A DNA stretch of 64,000 nt from contig JAQGDQ010001041.1 in NCBI GenBank assembly GCA_030141605.1, positions 1 through 64,000 of the forward strand, written 5' to 3'. Both the position numbers and the translations under genes were made by a program. The stretch's first letter is position 1; each line of letters begins with the position of its first letter. Source of the stretch: Tubiluchus corallicola. Its lineage: Eukaryota; Animalia; Priapulida. Positions 363-45,125 of this stretch are shown in pieces. Under the pieces are notes generated by a model. It worked only from the letters and a program-made list of their open reading frames with translations, ran no database searches and was not told the DNA's origin.

Positions 363-1065
363 AGTAGGATAGATGTTACACCTCTGGCCGATTTCCCGGG
401 GGGGGTGGGGATTTCCCCGGGGGGGTGGGGAAAAACACCCCTAAAAAAGTGCGAAAATCCGGGAAAACCCCTAAAAAAGTGTGAAAACCCGTGTGAAAGT
501 GCGCACGTGACCGAAATCGACGAAAAAGCGCGAAAAACAAAGAAAAACGAAGAAAAGGCGTGTGAAACGAGGTAAAAATTTTCCATTTTTTCCCTCCCGC
601 ATGGCTTCATTTGGATCGAATGACCTTGAACTCTAGGTCACGTGACCAAAGTTCATTGACCCCTGGCCCCTGGATGGCTTCTTTTTTTGACGCCCCATTT
701 TAAACCGCGCGAAAGTGCGTGAAAGCGCGTGAAAGCGCATGAAAGCGTGTGAAAGTGTGTGAAAGTGTGTGAAACGAGGTAAAAAGCGCCTCAAACGAAG
801 AAAAAGGGAGAAGTGGAGTTCCCGCCGAGGACTAATTAGTGCTAATTGGCGCTAATTGGCGCTAATTGGGGAGCCCCTGCCACCCCTCCGCCGCGTGCAA
901 ACGTCCGTCCCGGGGGTCGGGGACACCCCCCCTGCAACCCACCCCTCCGTCGCGTGGAATCGTCCACTGCAGGCAATGAGGGAAATCTTTTTCCCGCCAC
1001 TCGCGCAGTGCCGGCCCTTTTCCGCGACCACTTCTCTCTCTCGGGTGTCCTCCCTTTTCCGCGAC
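363..1065 (+). repeat. Left terminal inverted repeat (703 bp)
   Basis: Reverse complement of 2722-3450 up to TTCCGCGAC. Mirrored ORFs (359..610 - and 3203..3577 +) have identical translations over the shared part. Confidence 0.95.
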
Positions 1066-1120: not shown

Positions 1121-1174
1121 TTTATTTCAAACGCCAAAGTTCGATAAATGCATTTTCACAAATCTTTTTTTATT
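1121..1174 (-). terminator. Candidate polyadenylation signals of the element cassette
   Basis: AATAAA on the minus strand at 1174-1169 and 1126-1121, in an AT-rich stretch downstream of the TBP-like stop and just before the left TIR. Confidence 0.5.
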
Positions 1175-1322: not shown

Positions 1323-1907
1323 CTACACTAATGACGACGAGCGAGTACATGGATTGTCGTCGTCGATGTGATACAGACAAACGTTATTGTTGTTAAAAAC
1401 GAATTCGTTAAATTTGCGGAAAACGCGAGAGAAATCCTCGACCTTTGTCCCGCCCATCATTATTATGCTTCCGGTGTGAAAAATGTTCAGAGTAATTTGC
1501 TCGCATTTGCAAGTTAGTTTGGGAAATAGTTCCACTTCGTAAAACACTTCTCTAAAAGAATGCGTCGAAGGACGAACGAGTTCTTCGTACAGTGCACCCA
1601 GTTTCAATCTGCAGCGAATTTTGGCTCTGGCGGTGATGGTGCGAATTGCGATCCCGTCGGCGGGCGTCAGTCCGAGACCTTTCGAGAGTTCTTCGATCGC
1701 ATTGCGTAGTACTTTTTCCTCCGAAAAACCGTTGGCCACCACGGAGCCGGAGGCAAAAATCATCAGCGTCCCGCCCAGTCGCTTTAGCAGAACCATTTGC
1801 GGTTTCCTTTCGTAGCGTCTTCCGCCTGTTCTCCGCCAGAGTTCGTTCAGATCGAAGCGCTGCGAGAACGAAGCAGTGGCGACGATGTTGACCGTTTGGA
1901 CTGACAC
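1323..1907 (-). CDS. Divergent TATA-binding-protein (TBP)-fold protein, about 194 aa; no ATG before the domain (GTG at 1907)
   Basis: Two TBP repeats: VNIVATASFSQRFDL...TLMIFASGSVVANG and FYEVELFPKL...TLNIFHTGSIIMMGGTK (compare TBP LIFSSGKMVCTG and YEPELFPGL). Length equals a bare TBP core. Confidence 0.85.
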   Translation of the reverse strand: MSVQTVNIVATASFSQRFDLNELWRRTGGRRYERKPQMVLLKRLGGTLMIFASGSVVANGFSEEKVLRNAIEELSKGLGLTPADGIAIRTITARAKIRCRLKLGALYEELVRPSTHSFREVFYEVELFPKLTCKCEQITLNIFHTGSIIMMGGTKVEDFSRVFRKFNEFVFNNNNVCLYHIDDDNPCTRSSSLV

Positions 1908-2359
1908 GTTAGTACGTAGTTGGCAATCGTTTCGGACGCCCGAACCGCTCTGCCTCGTCCGTTGCTCTGCCAACGTATGGCGGGCGGCGGGTGCTCGCTT
2001 TCCAGATCTTCTACGCGTATGACCACGCGATTTTTGGGGAGATGTTTTTTGACGAAATCGTACATCTCTGCCCCCTTGACGTAGGTGATCCTGCCTCTGG
2101 TGGTCTGTCGTAGAATGTTTTCCAATTCTGCGTACTCGATCATTCCCTCCTCCCACGAGATGCCGTGTATGTGTCTGATTAGGTAGTTGTAGGTGGATCG
2201 CTTGTGCTGGGGAACGCGATTCCAGGGGTGGGGCGGTTTGAAGGTGTAGTTGTGATATATGCCGGTCTCTATTTCGCGAATTACCAAATTTTTGACCAGG
2301 TATTCTTCTTTTCCGCACTGGAAGGCATCTATGGTGAGAACTATGCTCGATTCAGACAT
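1847..2359 (-). CDS. 170-aa protein, probable DnaQ/DEDD-like exonuclease fold (possibly degenerate)
   Basis: ATG start and globular composition. Motifs IDAFQ..EYLVKNLVI, FKPPHPW, IHGISWEEG, YVKGAE and EDLE recall DnaQ-like proteins of invertebrate Polinton-like elements and DNA viruses (from memory). The ExoI DxE motif is incomplete. Confidence 0.6.
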   Translation of the reverse strand: MSESSIVLTIDAFQCGKEEYLVKNLVIREIETGIYHNYTFKPPHPWNRVPQHKRSTYNYLIRHIHGISWEEGMIEYAELENILRQTTRGRITYVKGAEMYDFVKKHLPKNRVVIRVEDLESEHPPPAIRWQSNGRGRAVRASETIANYVLTCQSKRSTSSPLLRSRSASI

Positions 2360-2702
2360 CTGTGACGATGGGGGGTCCTTCTACGCCGTCGGCAACGAGT
2401 TTTCCTTCGATGACGATTTGCTTGTGATTGTTCACAAATTCCAGAGACTTGATTTTTTCGAAGGTGTATTTTTTTATGACCTTGTTGGGGGCACTCTTGC
2501 GTGCGTTGGCGCGCTTGCCGCCCCGCGTCCCCGCTTGTTGTTGCTTGCGAGGAACGGTGGTTAGAGGTTGTTTGAAATCCTGCAAGAGAAGAAGAAGAAC
2601 AATAGTTATAGTATTGTTGTTCGCTAACGACAACTAGGCATTTTTGATGAGCCATTCTTTCAGATTTCTAGGTTTTTTGGGGGCAGTGGGGGTGAGCACC
2701 AT
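2352..2702 (-). CDS. Small basic protein with a histone H3-tail-like segment; in-frame TAG at 2636-2634 (short intron or nonsense mutation)
   Basis: Strong Kozak GCCGCCG-ATG-G at 2702 gives MVLTPTAPKKPRNLKEWLIKNA*. The same frame continues to DFKQPLTTVPRKQQQAGTRGGKRANARKSAPNKVIKK...TDV*. A pyrimidine tract plus CAG acceptor ends at 2580. Confidence 0.6.
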
Positions 2703-2721: not shown

Positions 2722-3450
2722 GTCGCGGAAAAGGGAGGACACCCGAGAGAGAGAGAAGTGGTCGCGGAAAAGGGCCGGCACTGCGCGAGTGGCGGGAAAA
2801 AGATTTCCCTCATTGCCTGCAGTGGACGATTCCACGCGACGGAGGGGTGGGTTGCAGGGGGGGGGGGTGTCCCCGACCCCCGGGACGGACGTTTGCATGC
2901 GGCGGAGGGGTGGCAGGGGCTCCCCAATTAGCGCCAATTAGCGCCAATTAGCACTAATTAGTCCTCGGCGGGAACTCCACTTCTCCCTTTTTCTTCGTTT
3001 GAGGCGCTTTTTACCTCGTTTCACACACTTTCACACACTTTCACACGCTTTCATGCGCTTTCACACGCTTTCACGCGCTTTCATACACTTTCGCGCGGTT
3101 TCGCGCGGTTTAAAATGGGGCGTCAAAAAAAGAAGCCATCCAGGGGCCAGGGGTCAATGAACTTTGGTCACGTGACCTAGAGTTCAAGGTCATTCGATCC
3201 AAATGAAGCCGTGCGGGAGGGAAAAAATGGAAAATTTTTACCTCGTTTCACACGCCTTTTCTTCGTTTTTCTTTGTTTTTCGCGCTTTTTCGTCGATTTC
3301 GGTCACGTGCGCACTTTCACACGGGTTTTCACACTTTTTTAGGGGTTTTCCCGGATTTTCGCACTTTTTTAGGGGTGTTTTTCCCCACCCCCCCGGGGAA
3401 ATCCCCACCCCCCCCGGGAAATCGGCCAGAGGTGTAACATCTATCCTACT
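2722..3450 (-). repeat. Right terminal inverted repeat (729 bp)
   Basis: Differs from the left TIR by two extra 10-bp GAAA units, a longer G-run, one extra CT unit and a few substitutions. Confidence 0.95.
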
Positions 3451-7970: not shown

Positions 7971-8460
7971 TTAAAGGAAAACCGGATGATAGTGTAATCA
8001 GAACGAAGAATGCTCAAAAATATTGAAAGCTACCTCGGATACTCAAATTTCATTAAGCTTTCAAAGCTACGCGCTCCTCAGTGAATCTACTGAGATTTTT
8101 AGTGGCGCCTTTTTGACACATGCGCGTGGCCGACAAATAGAAGGTGGTACCGTGATAACCATGACCATGAACTGCAGTGTTAGTTTCATGACGTCATATG
8201 ATGTAAAGCCCATTTTTCGTGACATCATGCATTTAAGCAGTACTGTAACACTTATGCAAATGTGCTTGACGTGCAAGGGAAGATGCCTGCCATTGCACAA
8301 ACTGTGGTTGGTTTCTGACATAAGCAATAGCTGTGTTCAGTACCCATTAATTAACTTTCTAAGCTAATTATTCAAATATAAGGAACAATAGTTAACTTTT
8401 ATAGACAAGAAAATGTATGTTTTGGACAGTAATCTAAACAATCGTCCAGTCTTCCTTTAA
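7971..8460. mobile_element. TTAA-flanked Kolobok/T2-like MITE, family A
   Basis: TTAA-AGGAAAACCGGATGAT ... ATCGTCCAGTCTTCCT-TTAA. An inverted homologue lies at 20195-20760. Confidence 0.8.
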
Positions 8461-20194: not shown

Positions 20195-20760
20195 TTAAAC
20201 GAAAACCGGATGATTGTTTGTGCTCAATTTCATTTTAGTTTTCTATCCAAAATATATGCTAGTATATAAAGAAGTTAAAAAACCTTTTATATAAGTTAGC
20301 ACTTGTTTCCTATACTTGAATAATTAGCCTAGAAAGTTAATTAACGGCAATTGAACAAGGCAATTGCTTATGTCATAAACTAACCACAGTTTGTGCAATG
20401 GCAGGCATCTTCCCTTGTGCATCAAGCACATTTGCATGTTGGTGTTACTGTTTAAAGGTGTGATGTCACAAAAATGGGCTCAATGTCATATGAGTCAGAA
20501 ATTAACACTCCAGTTCATGATCATGGTTATACCGCCTTATATTTGTTGGCCACGCGAATGTGACAAAAAAGTGCCGTTGCCAATCTTAGTGGATTCGCTG
20601 AGTGGCGCGTAGCTTTGAAAGTTGAACGAAATTTGAGTATCCAAGGTAATTATTATTTAATCTAAGCTTTGATTTGAAAAAAGGCTTTTGTAGTTTTCAA
20701 AATTTTAGAGCATTCCTTATTCTGAACTAATGATTACATAATCATCCGGTTTTCTTTTAA
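20195..20760. mobile_element. TTAA-flanked Kolobok/T2-like MITE, family A (inverted copy)
   Basis: TTAA-ACGAAAACCGGATGAT ... ATCATCCGGTTTTCTT-TTAA. The interior matches 8067-8327. Confidence 0.8.
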
Positions 20761-20856
20761 CTGCATACAAAAGGGTATGTCTATTATTTTACTTTTTGTG
20801 TTCATCATCATCATCAGCATCGCTATAATTGTTAATGTTAATACTATTATTATTAC

Positions 20857-22384: not shown

Positions 22385-22969
22385 TTAAAGCAAAGCCGGA
22401 ACACAATCTTAAATTGTATGTCCAAACAATCTACTCTTTAAAATATTGAAAGAACCATACAGTTTTTTTTCAAAAATGACTTATGTGAAAGAATTATTAC
22501 CACACAAACGCAATTTCACGTTCGCCCCACTAGTTCTTCGCACTAGCGCCTGCATTTCGGAAACGCGTTGCACAAAAGCAAGTGCTGTATGTATCAGTTC
22601 AGAGGTGTTCGTTTGTGACGTACAGCACATGTCCGACAGCGCATGAAATTTGAATTTTTATCTTAACGCTTGCCGAGTTTTAGTAAAACACATTCAACCT
22701 CTTGCCGTAGCACTGTACTTCAATTTTTGCTTTTGCGAACGCGTGCAACACGTTCGTAGAATATTTTTGCTGTTGAAAATTATGTTCATACATGATGTCA
22801 TCATTAAGATTTTATGATGTCATCATCCGCCGTTAATTAAGTTTTTAATCTTTAATCTATTATTTAATTATTAGAAATGCTTTTGCAGTATTAATTGCGT
22901 TAAAATGGATACCTTTTATCGGTCTTGAAAATGGGGTAGTATGTGAAAAATCATCCTGTCTTCCTTTAA
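22385..22969. mobile_element. TTAA-flanked Kolobok/T2-like MITE, family B
   Basis: TTAA ends. Shares CACTAGCGCCTGCATTTCGGAAA, GTAGCACTGTACTTCAATTTT and TGCTGTTGAAAATTATGTT with the other family B copies. Confidence 0.8.
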
Positions 22970-23907
22970 ACCAAAAGTTTCGACATACAGTGCACACAAT
23001 GACACCATTTTTCACGTACTTTAAAAATTAATATACACGACCCATATTGTTCTTTAAACAAGAGAAAACTTGTCTGTCCAAAAGATGATAGCGGATGTTT
23101 TACCGTACTTGAAAATATATGAAAAATTACCCTGTCTTACTTTAAAGCTTTTCCTCAGCTGTGACAATACAGCTTTTATTTCGCGTTTGAATTATGAACA
23201 AAACATAATCTTGGAACTGAGCCATCTGGTGGACAAAATATCAATTACAGCAAAAAATTGCTTTTGCAAAAATGTCGACAATAGAACGTCTATGGCAATA
23301 ATACAACAAAGAGAACAACATTAGACGCAACAAACTGTCCCTTATAAATACAAAATCGATCAGCTACGTCTTATCAAGCTGCAGAAATATGAAAACAGCA
23401 CATCATTTCACAAAATGTCTGCAAAAATCCACAAAATTGAGCCCCAAAATTTCATAAATGCGCTTAAAATAATGGGGAAACAAATAGGATAGTGCAGAGC
23501 AGGGAAATGTTTATGATACTTGTGGGAAATCATGTCGTCAAATTACCTTACAGGAATAAGCTGTAATGGCTCGCAAAATGCATGAAAACTAGGCAAATGA
23601 TAAATTTAGGAACTAAATATTAGAGCAAATGACATTATCATGTAAAAGCCAACATTCGCTCATACAGCACTCATTCATAACAGACATAAATCTCTTTACA
23701 AACGTATTAACAATGTACAGTGTGTACAGTTTGTCACAAAAATGACTGATATTTTAATGTCTAAAACCCTGAAAACTCTGAAGGGAAGAAATTTACAAGA
23801 ATGCAGCGAATAACTGCTGCTAATTTCAAAGATCTTGAAGTCGTAGTTTTTATCACAATGGTAAAATTAAACATGCACATCAGTTATGAACAATGTTCAG
23901 TTATGAA

Positions 23908-24091: not shown

Positions 24092-24667
24092 TTAAAGGAA
24101 AACAGGATCCTATCCTCTAATACACTGAAAGGAAACATGCTATTTTTTCAAGAATGATTGACGTGAAAGAATTATTACCACAGAAACGTAATTTATCGCC
24201 GTTAATTCTTCGATGTTACATGTACTTCACCATTCGCTAGTTAGATGGGCACTAGTGCCTGCATTTCGGAAATGCATTGCACAAAAAAACAGGTGCTTTT
24301 CCTCTCAGTTGAGAGGTGTTCGCTTGTGATGTAGTGCACAAGTTCGGGAGCTCATGCATGAGCACAGTGTTAACTTGAAGTTTGCCGAGTTTTTATATAC
24401 CACACTGCATGTTGTACAGTAGCACTGTACTTCAATTTTCGCTTTCTCAAACACGTGTAACACGCCCGTGGAAAGTTTGTGCTGTTAAAAATTATGTTGG
24501 TTTGTGATGTCATCACTAATTCGGTCTTCCGTCATTAATTACATTTTCTACCAATTATTTAATTTTCAGAAACGCTTTGGCATTATTATTGGTGTTGTGA
24601 CATGCATACTTTTTACCGTACACTTCAAAATGGAGTAGGGTACGAAAAATCATAGTGCTTTGCTTAA
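24092..24667. mobile_element. Kolobok/T2-like MITE, family B
   Basis: TTAA-AGGAAAACAGGA start. Same internal blocks as 22385-22969. Confidence 0.75.
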
Positions 24668-32123: not shown

Positions 32124-32989
32124 CAGACTGTGGGTGGTTACTGGCATGAGCGTGACATGGCGTCAACTGCAGCTTCAGTTCCCAGGCAACTAATTTTGGC
32201 ATCTTGCCAACAATTTTACCTCAATTTCCAACAAGGGCATATTCGTTTAAGCTACAGTTAAGCACGAACGGATACCGAAACAGGCACTATAAATCACTAA
32301 TGATCATTTCATTTTTTCAGGAAAATTTCCAGCAAATTTATTAACATTAAGATGCTACGGCTCAAGACAGCCAGTTGAGTTGCGCAGCAGACAGACAGAC
32401 AGACACACAGACAGTTGACTCGCCAAACGTCCGGATAAAATATTTAAAATCTTGCTCGTTTTAACGCTCGACTTAAATTTTCAGTCTGGTGTCGAAATGG
32501 CGGCCATAAATACGAGTTTATGCGGCTTACAAACGAAACGAAGGCATTCACACAAAATTAGAGGCACTTTATAAATTATGCAGTTCATTCAACGCAACGT
32601 TAGATTAGCATAAGCTGGACTTTCATTCTCCATTATGAATTTTTGCGACGTAATTTAAATTTGCGCGTGTTTGTACTTGCCTGCATAAACAGATGTAAAA
32701 TGGAAATTATAAACACTAAATAATACATAAAATGAAGCAAGATTTTCATGGTTGGTTCGTACTGTCCTGGAAATTTTAGTCAGAATCATCACCACAACTA
32801 ACGCGTGGGATACAGACGCTATTGCATAAATTCTGATCAAATTTAGCAAGATAGTGTTTATCGTTTGACTGTGCCAGGTCGAGTGTGGTTTACTCGTGTC
32901 TGAAATATAGATGATCACGCTCATGTGTAACTGAACAGTGTGCACAAATTACAGCTGCTTTTTACTGCAGTTGGCTGTGGAGACTTTGA

Positions 32990-33592
32990 TTAAAAGGAAG
33001 ACACGGTGATTTTTCGTATACTACCCCATTTTCAAGTCCGATAAAAAGTATACATTTTAACACAATTAATATTGCAAAGCGTTTCTGATCATTAAAAAAT
33101 AGATTAAAAACTTAATTAACAGCGGACGAGCGCCTGTTACATCACAAACTAACATAATTTTCAACAGCACAAACATTCCACGAGCGTGTTGCACGTGTTT
33201 GCAAAAGTGAAAATTGAAGTGCAGTGCTACTGTAAGATATTCAGTGTGTTATACTAAAACTACACAAGTTTCAAGATAAAAGTTCAAATTTATCGCTGTG
33301 CTCATGCATGAGCTGTCGAACGTGTGCAGAGCGTCACAAACGAACACATTTGAACTAAGAAGTACAGCAAATATTTTTGGGTAATGTGTTTCCGAAATGC
33401 AGGCGCTAGTGCCCGTCTAACCAGCGAATGGCGAAATGCATGAAACAGCAAAGTACTAGAGGTGCGAACGCGAAATTGCGTTTGTGTGGCGATAATAAGT
33501 CATTTTTGAAAAAATTGTATGTTTCCTTTCAATATTTAAAAAAGTAAATTGTTTTGACCTACAGTTAAAGATTGCATCCAGTTTTGCTTTAA
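32990..33592. mobile_element. Kolobok/T2-like MITE, family B (inverted)
   Basis: TTAA-AAGGAAGACACGGTGATTTTTC ... GTTTTGCT-TTAA. Reverse complement of the family B blocks. Confidence 0.8.
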
Positions 33593-41577: not shown

Positions 41578-44121
41578 ATATCCAAATCAGAATTTCGTGC
41601 CCGCAAATATAAAGCGTTTACGCCTTATTATGGGCGCATTATAATGGGCATATCTTGTACTCTGTGTAAATCTCCACTTAGCAGAATACAAATAAGTAAA
41701 TATAACAACGTATTAAACTGTTTGCATGCTTGTAAACAAGCCCACAGACTGTCGTGGCTGCAAAGTACTTTAACGCAAGGTACTTTAACTTCATTCGCAA
41801 ATATTAATAATAGTCTCATCGCAGCCTAGGAGCAAAACAGCGGAAGTCAGAGACTATACGTCCGGTTAAACTAGGTAGTGCATCATTAGTTATTCACATG
41901 TTTTTACTTATTAAATGTAGTAAACGTATTAAGCGTGTATTTTATAACTTTCGTACTCTCAAATTTACTGTTAAAAACAAGAACAGTGTCTAGTCAGCTT
42001 GGAACTAAGCTAGTAAGCTCTGTGTGTTAAAGAGCCTTACATTTCTAAATTATTATTAACATCATTTAATAAATATTTTATTTCATAAAAAGTGTTATTA
42101 GTTGAAATTATTTACACCATTAGTAATAAAAACAACATAACGATAGCAAAAAGAATGAATGGGCCTAGTATTTCTGATAAAATATATAAGAAGTACAACT
42201 TCTTTTCAAATTAACTTGTTACGATGTAATTTAGAATTGATTACAGTTGTGCTACGCTTAAAAAATTCATGTCATTACAGTCTATGCATTCGATGCAATC
42301 TCTAGCCATATTAGCAATTACCTGTTGGTTTCCTATCGAAGTCATTTTCCTCACTGATCTCCATGCCAAAATATATTATATCCATTTTCTAACTGATGTT
42401 CTAACTATTACAATTGAATGTGCAACATGTCAGTCGTAAATTAAAACCCATTGCTGATTTAACAGTAAACAGAGCTTGGTGCGCCACAAACTTAAAAATG
42501 TTACTACTTTGTTTACAACTAATACAGCATTTACTAAAACGGTTGGCAAACTGTTGACTTGGTAGTAAATTAGACATTTATCATATAACCTATATTATGT
42601 TCTAGAAAAATAACAGTAATAATAATAAGACTTGTAAGTGAAGCCTTGCACACAAATGGTGCCAACTTTCTAACACACAGACGGTGGTTTTGCAAACTAG
42701 TTTTTCTCAAACTATGGGAAGCTGATCATATGTATCTCTGGCTTCTATTAGGAGGGGTTTCATAGACTGGGCGGCAAAACAAACAGTAGAACAAAACGCG
42801 CCGCGGCACACTCATACAATAATCTCGGTCGAGGTTTTTTCTGCTGTGACTTTGAAGTAGAAGCGTTAAATGCAATATCATGTTCACTGAAGCCAGAAAG
42901 ATGCAGCGCGTAAAAGAGTAGCACACGTCTCGTCGTATGAGCGGAAGTAAATGAGTTTCTTCAATGGCTTCATAGGGTAGTGGCTTCAGTTGAGGTAGAG
43001 GGACTATTTTCGCGTCAATGAAGGAAATTACCAGCAGAGACGCAGTTTAATACAGTAATAAGAATATGAAAGGTCTACAAAATCTGAATCGTAAACAGAA
43101 GGTCCCCGGTTCAAATCCAGGCTGCACATTTCCTGCCTCTCAAATTTAGCAAAATTTTAACTAATTCTGCGTTTGTAGCATTAGGAATTCCCAAGGTGTC
43201 AGGGCTTTAAAGAAGAAGTGATAAAATTCGTTCATTTTAGCGGCCAAACCAAAGCAAAAAGTACCATTTGTAAAAATTATAGATACACTTAAAAGTACGC
43301 CGGACGATTGTGTAGACATTAGCTCAAAATAAACTATGCTCTAAAATATTCAAAACTAGAACAGCTCTTTTTAAATCAGTGCTTAGATTAAGTAATAACT
43401 ACCTAGGATAGTTAAATTTTGTTAAACTTTCAAAGCTATCTGAGTCACCAGCAGGCATTATTATTGGCTGTTCATTCCGAGAATGACTACAGATACTAAT
43501 AATCAGTTTGATATCGTAAAACATGAATGACATTCAAATATCACTGTCATTTCCGACGTCCACACGATGCTGCAACACTGACAAACTCGACAATGACAGT
43601 ATTTTGAATGACCGCGTGGACGACACATTAGAAAACGAACTTGCCTTACAACAATGTGCAAACAGAGCACTGAGAACATTGTACCAACCACTAGCAAACA
43701 CAATCAACAGGCGAAACAGTTAAACTTTCAGCCTTAAACAAAACGAACACGAGAAAAACATTAAATTCTACCTCATTTCTACAAGTCGCGGGGTCTGAAA
43801 ACTCGTGAATCGATTATCCTGTAAATCGGGAGTTTATCAACGCGTCTCTGTTCTACTAATGTATTCCCAGAAGGCAGGCAGTCAGTATGTCTTAATTCAT
43901 CAATTACTTGCGAGCGCCAAAGTGCTCCATCAAATTGTGTTTTCTTATACACTGTTCAACTTCTTTTGGTCAACACGGGGAGAAAGAAAGCAAACAGATT
44001 TGGTGAAGTATGGAGAAAATTGCTACAGGGAAATTGACGAGGCTGGCAAATGTAATGCATTGCATCTCACTAACAAGCGAGGCTGAGTTACACACCCAAC
44101 CAATTCAAATTGCGTAAAAGT

Positions 44122-44511: not shown

Positions 44512-45125
44512 AGGAATGCAGGACTCCATCATCTTAAACTATAGTTCAAAACACTCTGCAATTTAAAATATTGAAAGGAAACATACTATTTCTTCAAGAA
44601 CGACTTACGTGAAAGAGTTATTATTATTACAGGAACGTAATTTCGCGTTTGCGCTGCTAATTCTTTGCTGCATGTTTAGACGGGTACTAGCGCCTACATC
44701 TCGGAAACACTTTGCCGAAAAAAACAAGTGCTGTACCTCTCAGTTCATAGGTGTTCGTTTGTGACATAGTGCACACATTCGACAGCTAATATGTGAGCAT
44801 AGCGGTAGGCTTCAAATTACAGTTTTAAACTTAAAATTTGCCGAGTTTTAGTAGAACATACTGAACCTCTTACAGTAGCACTGTAGGCCTTACTTCAATT
44901 TTCGCTTTTGCAAACACGTGCAACACGCTCGTGGAATGTTTGTGCTGTTGAAAATTATGTTCAGTTGTGATATCATCACGAGCTGAGCTCGCTCGCCATT
45001 ATTAGGGTTTTAACGTATTATTCAATTATCAGAAGCGCTTTGGTGTTATTACAGGTGTTAAAATGTACACTTTTACAGTACTTCAAAACGGGGTAGTATA
45101 TGAAAAATCACCCACTTTCCTTTAA
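44508..45125. mobile_element. Kolobok/T2-like MITE, family B
   Basis: TTAA-AGGAATGCAGGA ... AAAATCACCCACTTTCCT-TTAA with family B internal blocks. Confidence 0.8.

Follow-up and report, generated by a model that had tools for sequence, protein, structure and literature searches.

A 3,088-bp element bounded by terminal inverted repeats of approximately 700 bp was identified in the window (the whole stretch of 64,000 nucleotides analyzed here), and its minus strand encodes a divergent two-lobe TBP core whose altered DNA contacts, judged by comparison with related sequences, are an old family signature and not the result of decay. A joint explanation is considered probable, in which the element is a young, internally deleted, and non-autonomous Polinton/Maverick derivative, and the TBP of complete elements would be an early protein whose binding to a variant TATA box brings host TFIIB and Pol II to the late genes. 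The features of the element are as follows, with positions given in the window.

363..1065, plus strand: left terminal inverted repeat of 703 bp, beginning with AG
621..662, plus strand: cluster of five half-sites of nuclear-receptor type that includes a perfect inverted repeat with a 1-nt spacer (650-662)
1121..1174, minus strand: two AATAAA signals beyond the TBP stop codon
1323..1907, minus strand: divergent two-lobe TBP core, with no in-frame ATG upstream of 1796
1847..2359, minus strand: 170-aa open reading frame with Maelstrom/DEDD-like features, overlapping at its 3' end with the TBP core's 5' end
2352..2579, minus strand: 75-codon basic open frame without an ATG, behind the element's strongest acceptor-like site
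2722..2774, minus strand: 14-nt pyrimidine-rich word present twice at the inner repeat end, a candidate TATA-less initiation site
2722..3450, minus strand: right terminal inverted repeat of 729 bp, ending with CT and presumed to be the promoter region of the minus-strand unit

The TBP core lies in a minus-strand frame that is uninterrupted over 342 codons (1323-2351), where the TBP part spans 1374-1922 and contains neither a stop codon nor a frameshift. The Pfam TBP model (PF00352) matched it in two stretches with an E-value of 8.1e-22 and a score of 77.3 bits against a cut-off of 22.9, and 35 solved TBP sequences matched the core as well. An AlphaFold2 model built from an 84-row alignment of TBP-like hits reached a pLDDT of 95.1 and a pTM of 0.88, with the two-lobe topology and the pseudo-symmetric saddle fold of the TBP family; a fold predicted from the single sequence was uninformative (pLDDT 33.5). 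The best Foldseek match was yeast TBP (1tbp; TM 0.83, rmsd 2.2, and 23% identity), with identities to solved TBPs of only 22-27%, and within a viral structure library the TBPs of large DNA viruses (NCLDV) were the top fold matches. The intronless two-repeat TBP core that had been proposed in a sequence-only reading was therefore borne out by both the profile and the predicted fold. While the core has no intron, other frames of the element carry splice-acceptor-like sites. Similarly, an N-terminal extension is absent as proposed, but the 5' boundary given for the core, 1907, is not an ATG, and the first in-frame ATG is found at 1796.

Residues of the window TBP were mapped on a plant TBP from among the hits (P0005) in Arabidopsis numbering, with the intercalating phenylalanines numbered as in the relevant part of bioRxiv 10.1101/2025.01.26.634961. 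Three of these four phenylalanines (Phe74, Phe148, and Phe165) are kept, as is the Asn27 of cellular TBP. Compared with canonical TBP, the first stirrup is shorter by one residue and has lost its Phe (Phe57 to Pro), the Asn of the second repeat is replaced (Asn117 to Thr), and the acidic second stirrup retains both Glu144 and Glu146. Apart from the kept Asn27, these states had been recognized in the sequence-only reading, but its list was too short, as changes also affect the N-lobe basic patch and Thr82, Thr173, Val119, Leu163, Lys78, and Lys169. Among the canonical TATA contacts, three of four Phe, one of two Asn, and neither of two Thr are present, an incomplete canonical set. The basic patch, which serves TFIIA, TAF1, Mot1, and Brf, was taken to comprise Asn49, Glu51, Arg65, Lys96, and Lys103, and the mapped positions are replaced or gapped in the window TBP. 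Within the C-terminal lobe, both positions that read as Glu in the window sequence are those described as contacting TFIIB in section 11 of PMC7221094.

A search of the full protein library with the window TBP returned 108 hits, many of which were short divergent TBPs, and the only close protein relative was P0001 (59% identical), which was found in Logan only. Metagenome contigs were scanned with a 19-row alignment of a sister group rather than of the window's own subclade, and the best 80 of 95 relatives were kept as loci. The removal of three large-virus-like loci, two loci lacking a clustered TBP ORF, and another four with a TBP under 130 aa left 71 locus TBPs. Four derived states of the window TBP were shared across this set: Phe57 was replaced by Pro in 69 of the 71, Asn117 by Ser or Thr in 70, Val119 by Thr or Ser in all 71, and Leu163 by Asn, His, or Ser in 69, and none of these four columns was part of the locus search patterns. 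Kept residues included Phe74 (71/71), Phe148 (69/71), Phe165 (69/71), and Asn27 (70/71). Glu146 occurred in 69 and Glu or Asp at position 144 in 67 of the 71 TBPs, a conservation that is partly circular because the E-x-E columns belonged to one search pattern; the E-x-E is also kept in P0001, P0002, P0004, and P0008, which came from a different search. For all 71 close pairs of relatives, a set distinct from the window copy itself, dN/dS was below 0.5 (median 0.16). The viral contigs searched with the window TBP, two alignments, or the neighboring ORF yielded no locus, although a single relative was counted in one of these searches, and the genome contigs searched contained no DNA of the window subclade. 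Separately, P0003, from a DPANN archaeon, is 702 aa long and combines four TBP-like repeats with a membrane-like segment.

In a tree of 66 rows, the window TBP grouped with P0001 (99) and then with P0002, P0004, and P0008 (92), and this subclade was sister to the Polinton-locus clade with 88% SH-aLRT, among long branches. The window TBP was placed outside the 11 canonical eukaryotic rows (97). Forcing the window TBP and P0001 into that canonical group was rejected (AU p 0.010) on a tree that has long branches, came from a quick search, and contained canonical rows labelled by the analyst, with no metazoan TBP or TRF2 row among them. The phylogeny thus speaks against a decayed host copy as far as these rows extend, and together with the shared derived residues and the neighboring gene it upholds the earlier proposal of a divergent TBP encoded by a mobile element.

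The 170-aa ORF that overlaps the TBP core had no Pfam or PDB match and no close protein relative in a direct search, while tblastn against locus L054 gave an E-value of 9e-12 within the small set of 80 loci. The L054 relative received an Atlas lead to Maelstrom (PF13017, 0.87), which is used as a lead only. A Glu, a Cys, a His, and a second Cys, which we take to be the Maelstrom motif, are nearly invariant in 11 relatives of this gene; the window copy has lost these conserved acidic, Cys, and His residues and keeps eight of 16 conserved columns. This family is widespread in Polintons and has no Pfam model, and in four loci (L017, L023, L024, and L027) two tandem copies lie directly downstream of TBP. 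A literature search found no paper that ties Maelstrom-like genes to Mavericks. A fusion of the two window genes by programmed frameshifting was set aside: no slippery heptamer was noted at the junction by eye, and the relatives keep the genes separate.

In 48 of the 80 loci, and in 27 of the 33 loci of at least 4 kb, there was a gene for a packaging ATPase, an integrase, PolB, a protease, or a putative capsid protein, where capsid labels were inferred from size and gene order, and Pfam searches of representative loci identified rve with chromo, DNA_pol_B_2, Pox_A32, Peptidase_C5, and PLA2. Among the 21 loci with both genes, the Maelstrom/DEDD-like gene was directly beside TBP in 20, although short contigs bias such counts toward closeness. 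It was directly upstream in 15, as in the window, with 11 overlapping by 55-79 nt; it was directly downstream in five and 2.9 kb away in one. The window element hence shares both gene homology and gene order with Polinton loci, as would a Polinton derivative.

The structure of the element is in line with such a derivation. Its outer ends read AG...CT, which presumably corresponds to the Polinton consensus. Its terminal inverted repeats are long, as in Polintons/Mavericks, for which a 584-bp terminal repeat is termed typical in the section of PMC3014272 concerned. Aligned to each other, the two arms are 99.6% identical (700 matches, three mismatches, and four indels in internal repeats), so the insertion is either young or homogenized. 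The interior measures 1.66 kb with all frames on the minus strand, and only a repeat-adjacent early unit is kept, which consists of a small exon, the Maelstrom/DEDD-like gene, and TBP, without late genes. No PolB, integrase, or virion gene was found in the element or in the 64-kb window, and due to the lack of PolB and integrase the element was classed as a Polinton/Maverick derivative and not as an autonomous member. The sequence-only reading was right in calling the element mobile, but it overlooked the Polinton/Maverick derivation, the family-wide nature of the residue changes, and the missing ATG before the core. Searches against PHROGs and Rfam returned nothing, and no second copy of the element was found within the window. 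An exact 6-bp target-site duplication was not found, as the flanks differ and the one 5-nt word common to the two sides is offset by 3 nt. At 279-362, the left repeat is adjoined by a perfect (TAC)n run that the right flank lacks, and this run may have erased the duplication.

The 75-codon frame is likely a spliced exon, as suggested by the acceptor-like site before it (16 of 16 pyrimidines, followed by CAG) and by its GC3 of 0.59 against a GC2 of 0.36. It had no informative relative in PHROGs, the 80 loci, or Atlas, and an Atlas lead (recognition 1486, with bacterial hypothetical hits) was set aside. The 14-nt pyrimidine-rich word at the inner repeat end may be akin to a TCT initiator. Consistent with the earlier claim that no canonical TATA is present at this end, TATAWAWR was absent from both strands of the whole element, and YATAAACR (see below) was absent from the element as well.

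The terminal repeats also hold short tandem words (GTGTGAAAG four times, GCTAATTGG three times, and CACGTGACC twice) and G-rich runs near their ends. An 18-nt repeat-end pattern recurred in four viral contigs that had nothing else in common, and was judged a chance match. The rest of the window is rich in micro- and minisatellites and has no long unique ORF, with the surrounding DNA at 35% GC, a composition suggestive of an animal genome. Dispersed repeats of 75-95% identity in both orientations were observed at 22540-22975, 24203-24510, 32985-33572, and 44531-44971, and further ones at 8031-8403 with 20288-20766 and 43283-43438; these families are probably short elements of the host.

Word counting in the loci revealed a variant TATA box, (T/C)ATAAAC(A/G) or YATAAACR. 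In loci that are mutually related, and from which the motif was itself defined, the box lay in the 100 nt upstream of the start in 105 of 198 non-TBP genes but in none of 61 TBP genes, compared with one of 198 in each of the antisense and internal controls. Most sites were located 31-60 nt before the ATG. The occurrence of the box varied among genes: it preceded 21 of 30 ATPase, 12 of 20 integrase, nine of 11 putative major capsid, and 13 of 15 PLA2 genes, but only one of eight protease and none of 17 zinc finger genes. In contrast, a canonical TATA was found before 19 of 61 TBP genes and 23 of 198 others (p 6e-4). The box was enriched in the 69 loci with Pro at position 57 (230 occurrences against 85 expected), and not in the two loci that keep Phe57, which represent one lineage (three against 2.9). 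One of the loci keeping Phe57, L072 (1302-2728), encodes a PC4 coactivator (Pfam E-value 4e-21) just upstream of TBP; the PC4 gene has a canonical TATA, and YATAAACR is not enriched there. The three large-virus-like loci (L078-L080), which were left out of the Polinton counts, have a more canonical TBP and, by eye, genes resembling those of a large DNA virus, and contain no YATAAACR against 5.2 expected.

Given this enrichment before the non-TBP genes of the relatives, the promoters in question are TATA-variant and not TATA-less, which corrects one half of the earlier suggestion that the TBP recruits TFIIB/Pol II at TATA-less promoters; the recruitment half remains plausible with both glutamates kept. 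The box of the window subclade may differ from YATAAACR, since Lys78, Val80, and Thr82 are positions at which this subclade departs from the box-bearing loci, its DNA was not found in the contigs searched, and its join to the locus clade has 88% SH-aLRT. A literature search of article text found no paper that addresses how a Polinton TBP functions or that describes a YATAAACR box.

In the mechanism proposed for complete Polintons, the TBP gene would be transcribed early by host TFIID, and the viral TBP would then bind the variant box before the capsid, packaging, and integrase genes, where an intact Polinton TBP would favor YATAAACR over TATAAAAG. The C at position 7 was present in 131 of 153 box sites. 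We assume that this is the C that can form a Hoogsteen pair and that this end of the box is read by repeat 1, the repeat in which the Phe was lost. Cellular TBP takes a C in the box only via Hoogsteen pairs that avoid a leucine clash, according to the account in PMC4402545 (cf. 1qn3). Host TFIIB would likely act as the adapter that brings Pol II, in view of the two kept TFIIB-contact glutamates and the lack of any TFIIB family match among 121 ORFs of 11 loci, which are partial and could thus miss a TFIIB gene. Most TBP-bearing large viruses, as surveyed in the relevant part of PMC7221094, encode their own TFIIB. The loss of the N-lobe basic patch would let the viral TBP escape control by TFIIA, TAF1, and Mot1, an escape that section 12 of PMC7221094 proposes for other viral TBPs. 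Any targets of the window TBP would have to lie on other copies.

Whether the window copy takes part in such a mechanism is a separate matter, and there is only slightly less than an even chance that it is a dead passenger, in which case the parent Polinton used its TBP, the start was lost here, and no folded protein is made. An ATG precedes the first conserved Asn in 70 of the 71 relatives, at a distance of three to six residues in 56, and the window copy has none. The 42 codons before the ATG at 1796 are real coding sequence, as they add 36 bits to the TBP profile score, which none of 500 shuffles reached; this ATG lies inside repeat 1, and translation from it would drop the first strand and helix of that repeat. 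Additionally, no TATA-like site lies upstream of the core, the acceptor-like site at its 5' end is weak (eight of 16 pyrimidines, only 8 nt behind a branch-point-like word), and the neighboring gene has lost its conserved residues. Several observations point the other way: the core has no stop or frameshift, the near-identity of the repeats leaves little time for decay, and all three frames keep GC3 above GC2, each beginning just behind a YAG. P0001, the nearest relative, was also called from the same internal Met, which lends weak support to a shared unusual start, although other hits show truncated calls too. From the sequence, a start-less and silent copy comes close to an even prospect, expression through splicing or a non-AUG start is a real but somewhat smaller one, and an indel or assembly error is improbable. 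A silent window copy is compatible with the family-level part of the favored explanation.

It is unlikely that the TBP of the family serves instead as a decoy for TFIIB/Brf, or as a structural or replication factor on the terminal repeats, with the box read by a host protein. A host factor could indeed read the box, and the TFIIB-contact glutamates persist alongside the loss of an intercalating Phe, an Asn, and the two Thr contacts. Moreover, an element devoid of the box has still retained the TBP gene, and a divergent TBP can switch its substrate, such as the Giardia TBP that binds single-stranded DNA (PMC12209930). However, three of the four phenylalanines persist and the replacements are nearly invariant, as expected for a new specificity, while the box wholly avoids TBP genes and shows no enrichment in loci that keep Phe57. 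The sequestration of TFIIB, raised earlier alongside its recruitment, found nothing in the analysis that points to it, whereas recruitment is made plausible by the kept glutamates.

More doubtful still is that the element forms a regulatory satellite instead of debris, whose repeat-driven and spliced early unit would be under a nuclear-receptor promoter and whose orthogonal TBP would act in trans on the late genes of complete Polintons. In that case, the TBP and the YATAAAC-type box would make up the smallest viral late switch known, with a single 175-residue protein redirecting host TFIIB/Pol II under hormone control by the host. The half-site cluster in the left repeat spans 42 bp and is mirrored at 3151-3192 in the other repeat; its half-site consensus and the assignment to ecdysone-response-like and FTZ-F1-like factors are our assumptions. 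The perfect inverted repeat matched twice in the window, both times in the terminal repeats, where 0.06 matches were expected. The cluster, which was found post hoc at one locus, contains five half-sites, compared with at most three in 1000 shuffled repeats and at most one in the rest of the window, and this suggests that the early unit may be under hormone-receptor control. It was not found in the 80 loci, which mostly lack termini.

The capture by a transposon of a processed and decayed host TBP or TRF2 gene is very improbable and already largely refuted, as the intronless core without N-terminal extension or start codon, and trees without a metazoan TBP or TRF2/TBPL1 row, are outweighed by the 22-27% identity to solved TBPs, the rejected placement with the 11 canonical rows, the four derived residues and neighboring gene in common with Polinton loci, and the absence, at both kept first-lobe aromatic positions, of the Trp at N.L5.1 given as diagnostic of TBPL1 in PMC7221094.

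If the favored explanation of an early Polinton TBP with its own late box is true, it would be a natural case of a TBP whose specificity has changed at a base disfavored by the cellular protein. A re-shaped TBP with a matching variant box would reduce the question to one protein and one motif, testable in vitro. The window copy, which may be silent, adds a minimal derivative and a cluster of hormone-receptor-type sites. To our knowledge, no virion programme, including the timing of virion genes, has been dissected in Polintons or adintoviruses.

Compared with known systems, the window TBP resembles cellular TBP (PF00352; 1tbp, 1cdw, and 1qn3) and TBPL1/TRF2 in its saddle fold, three of the four phenylalanines, Asn27, Glu144, and Glu146, while it differs from cellular TBP in the replacement of Phe57, Asn117, Thr82, Thr173, and the basic residues of helix 2. 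Figure legends on MELD viruses and adintovirus relatives (Starrett et al., PMC8502044, bioRxiv 10.1101/697771) already label TBP-like genes, again in linear elements related to Polintons; the accompanying text offers no residue analysis, promoter motif, or function for them. Unlike in those genomes, the window TBP resides in a 3.1-kb deleted element without PolB, integrase, or virion genes. The TBP label in Polinton-related viruses was thus known, and the residue signature, the variant box, and the half-site cluster are what is reported here.

The TBP-TFIIB pairs of NCLDV also include a viral two-lobe TBP without the eukaryotic basic signature of the N-lobe. As described in the corresponding sections of PMC7221094, the positions that contact TFIIB are variable in them (conservation of about 40%) and a TFIIB of viral origin usually accompanies the TBP, whereas the window TBP keeps both glutamates and no TFIIB was found in the related partial loci. 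The closest functional model, by analogy, would be the TBP mimics of beta- and gamma-herpesviruses (KSHV ORF24, EBV BcRF1, and HCMV UL87), which use a variant TATT late box with host Pol II. In the portion of PMC6541308 that treats them, these mimics are of large size and bind directly to Pol II as part of a complex of six members. In contrast, the window TBP is a bare core of about 175 residues in which the TFIIB glutamates remain, and YATAAACR carries its variant base, a C, at position 7, while that of the herpesvirus TATT is at position 4.
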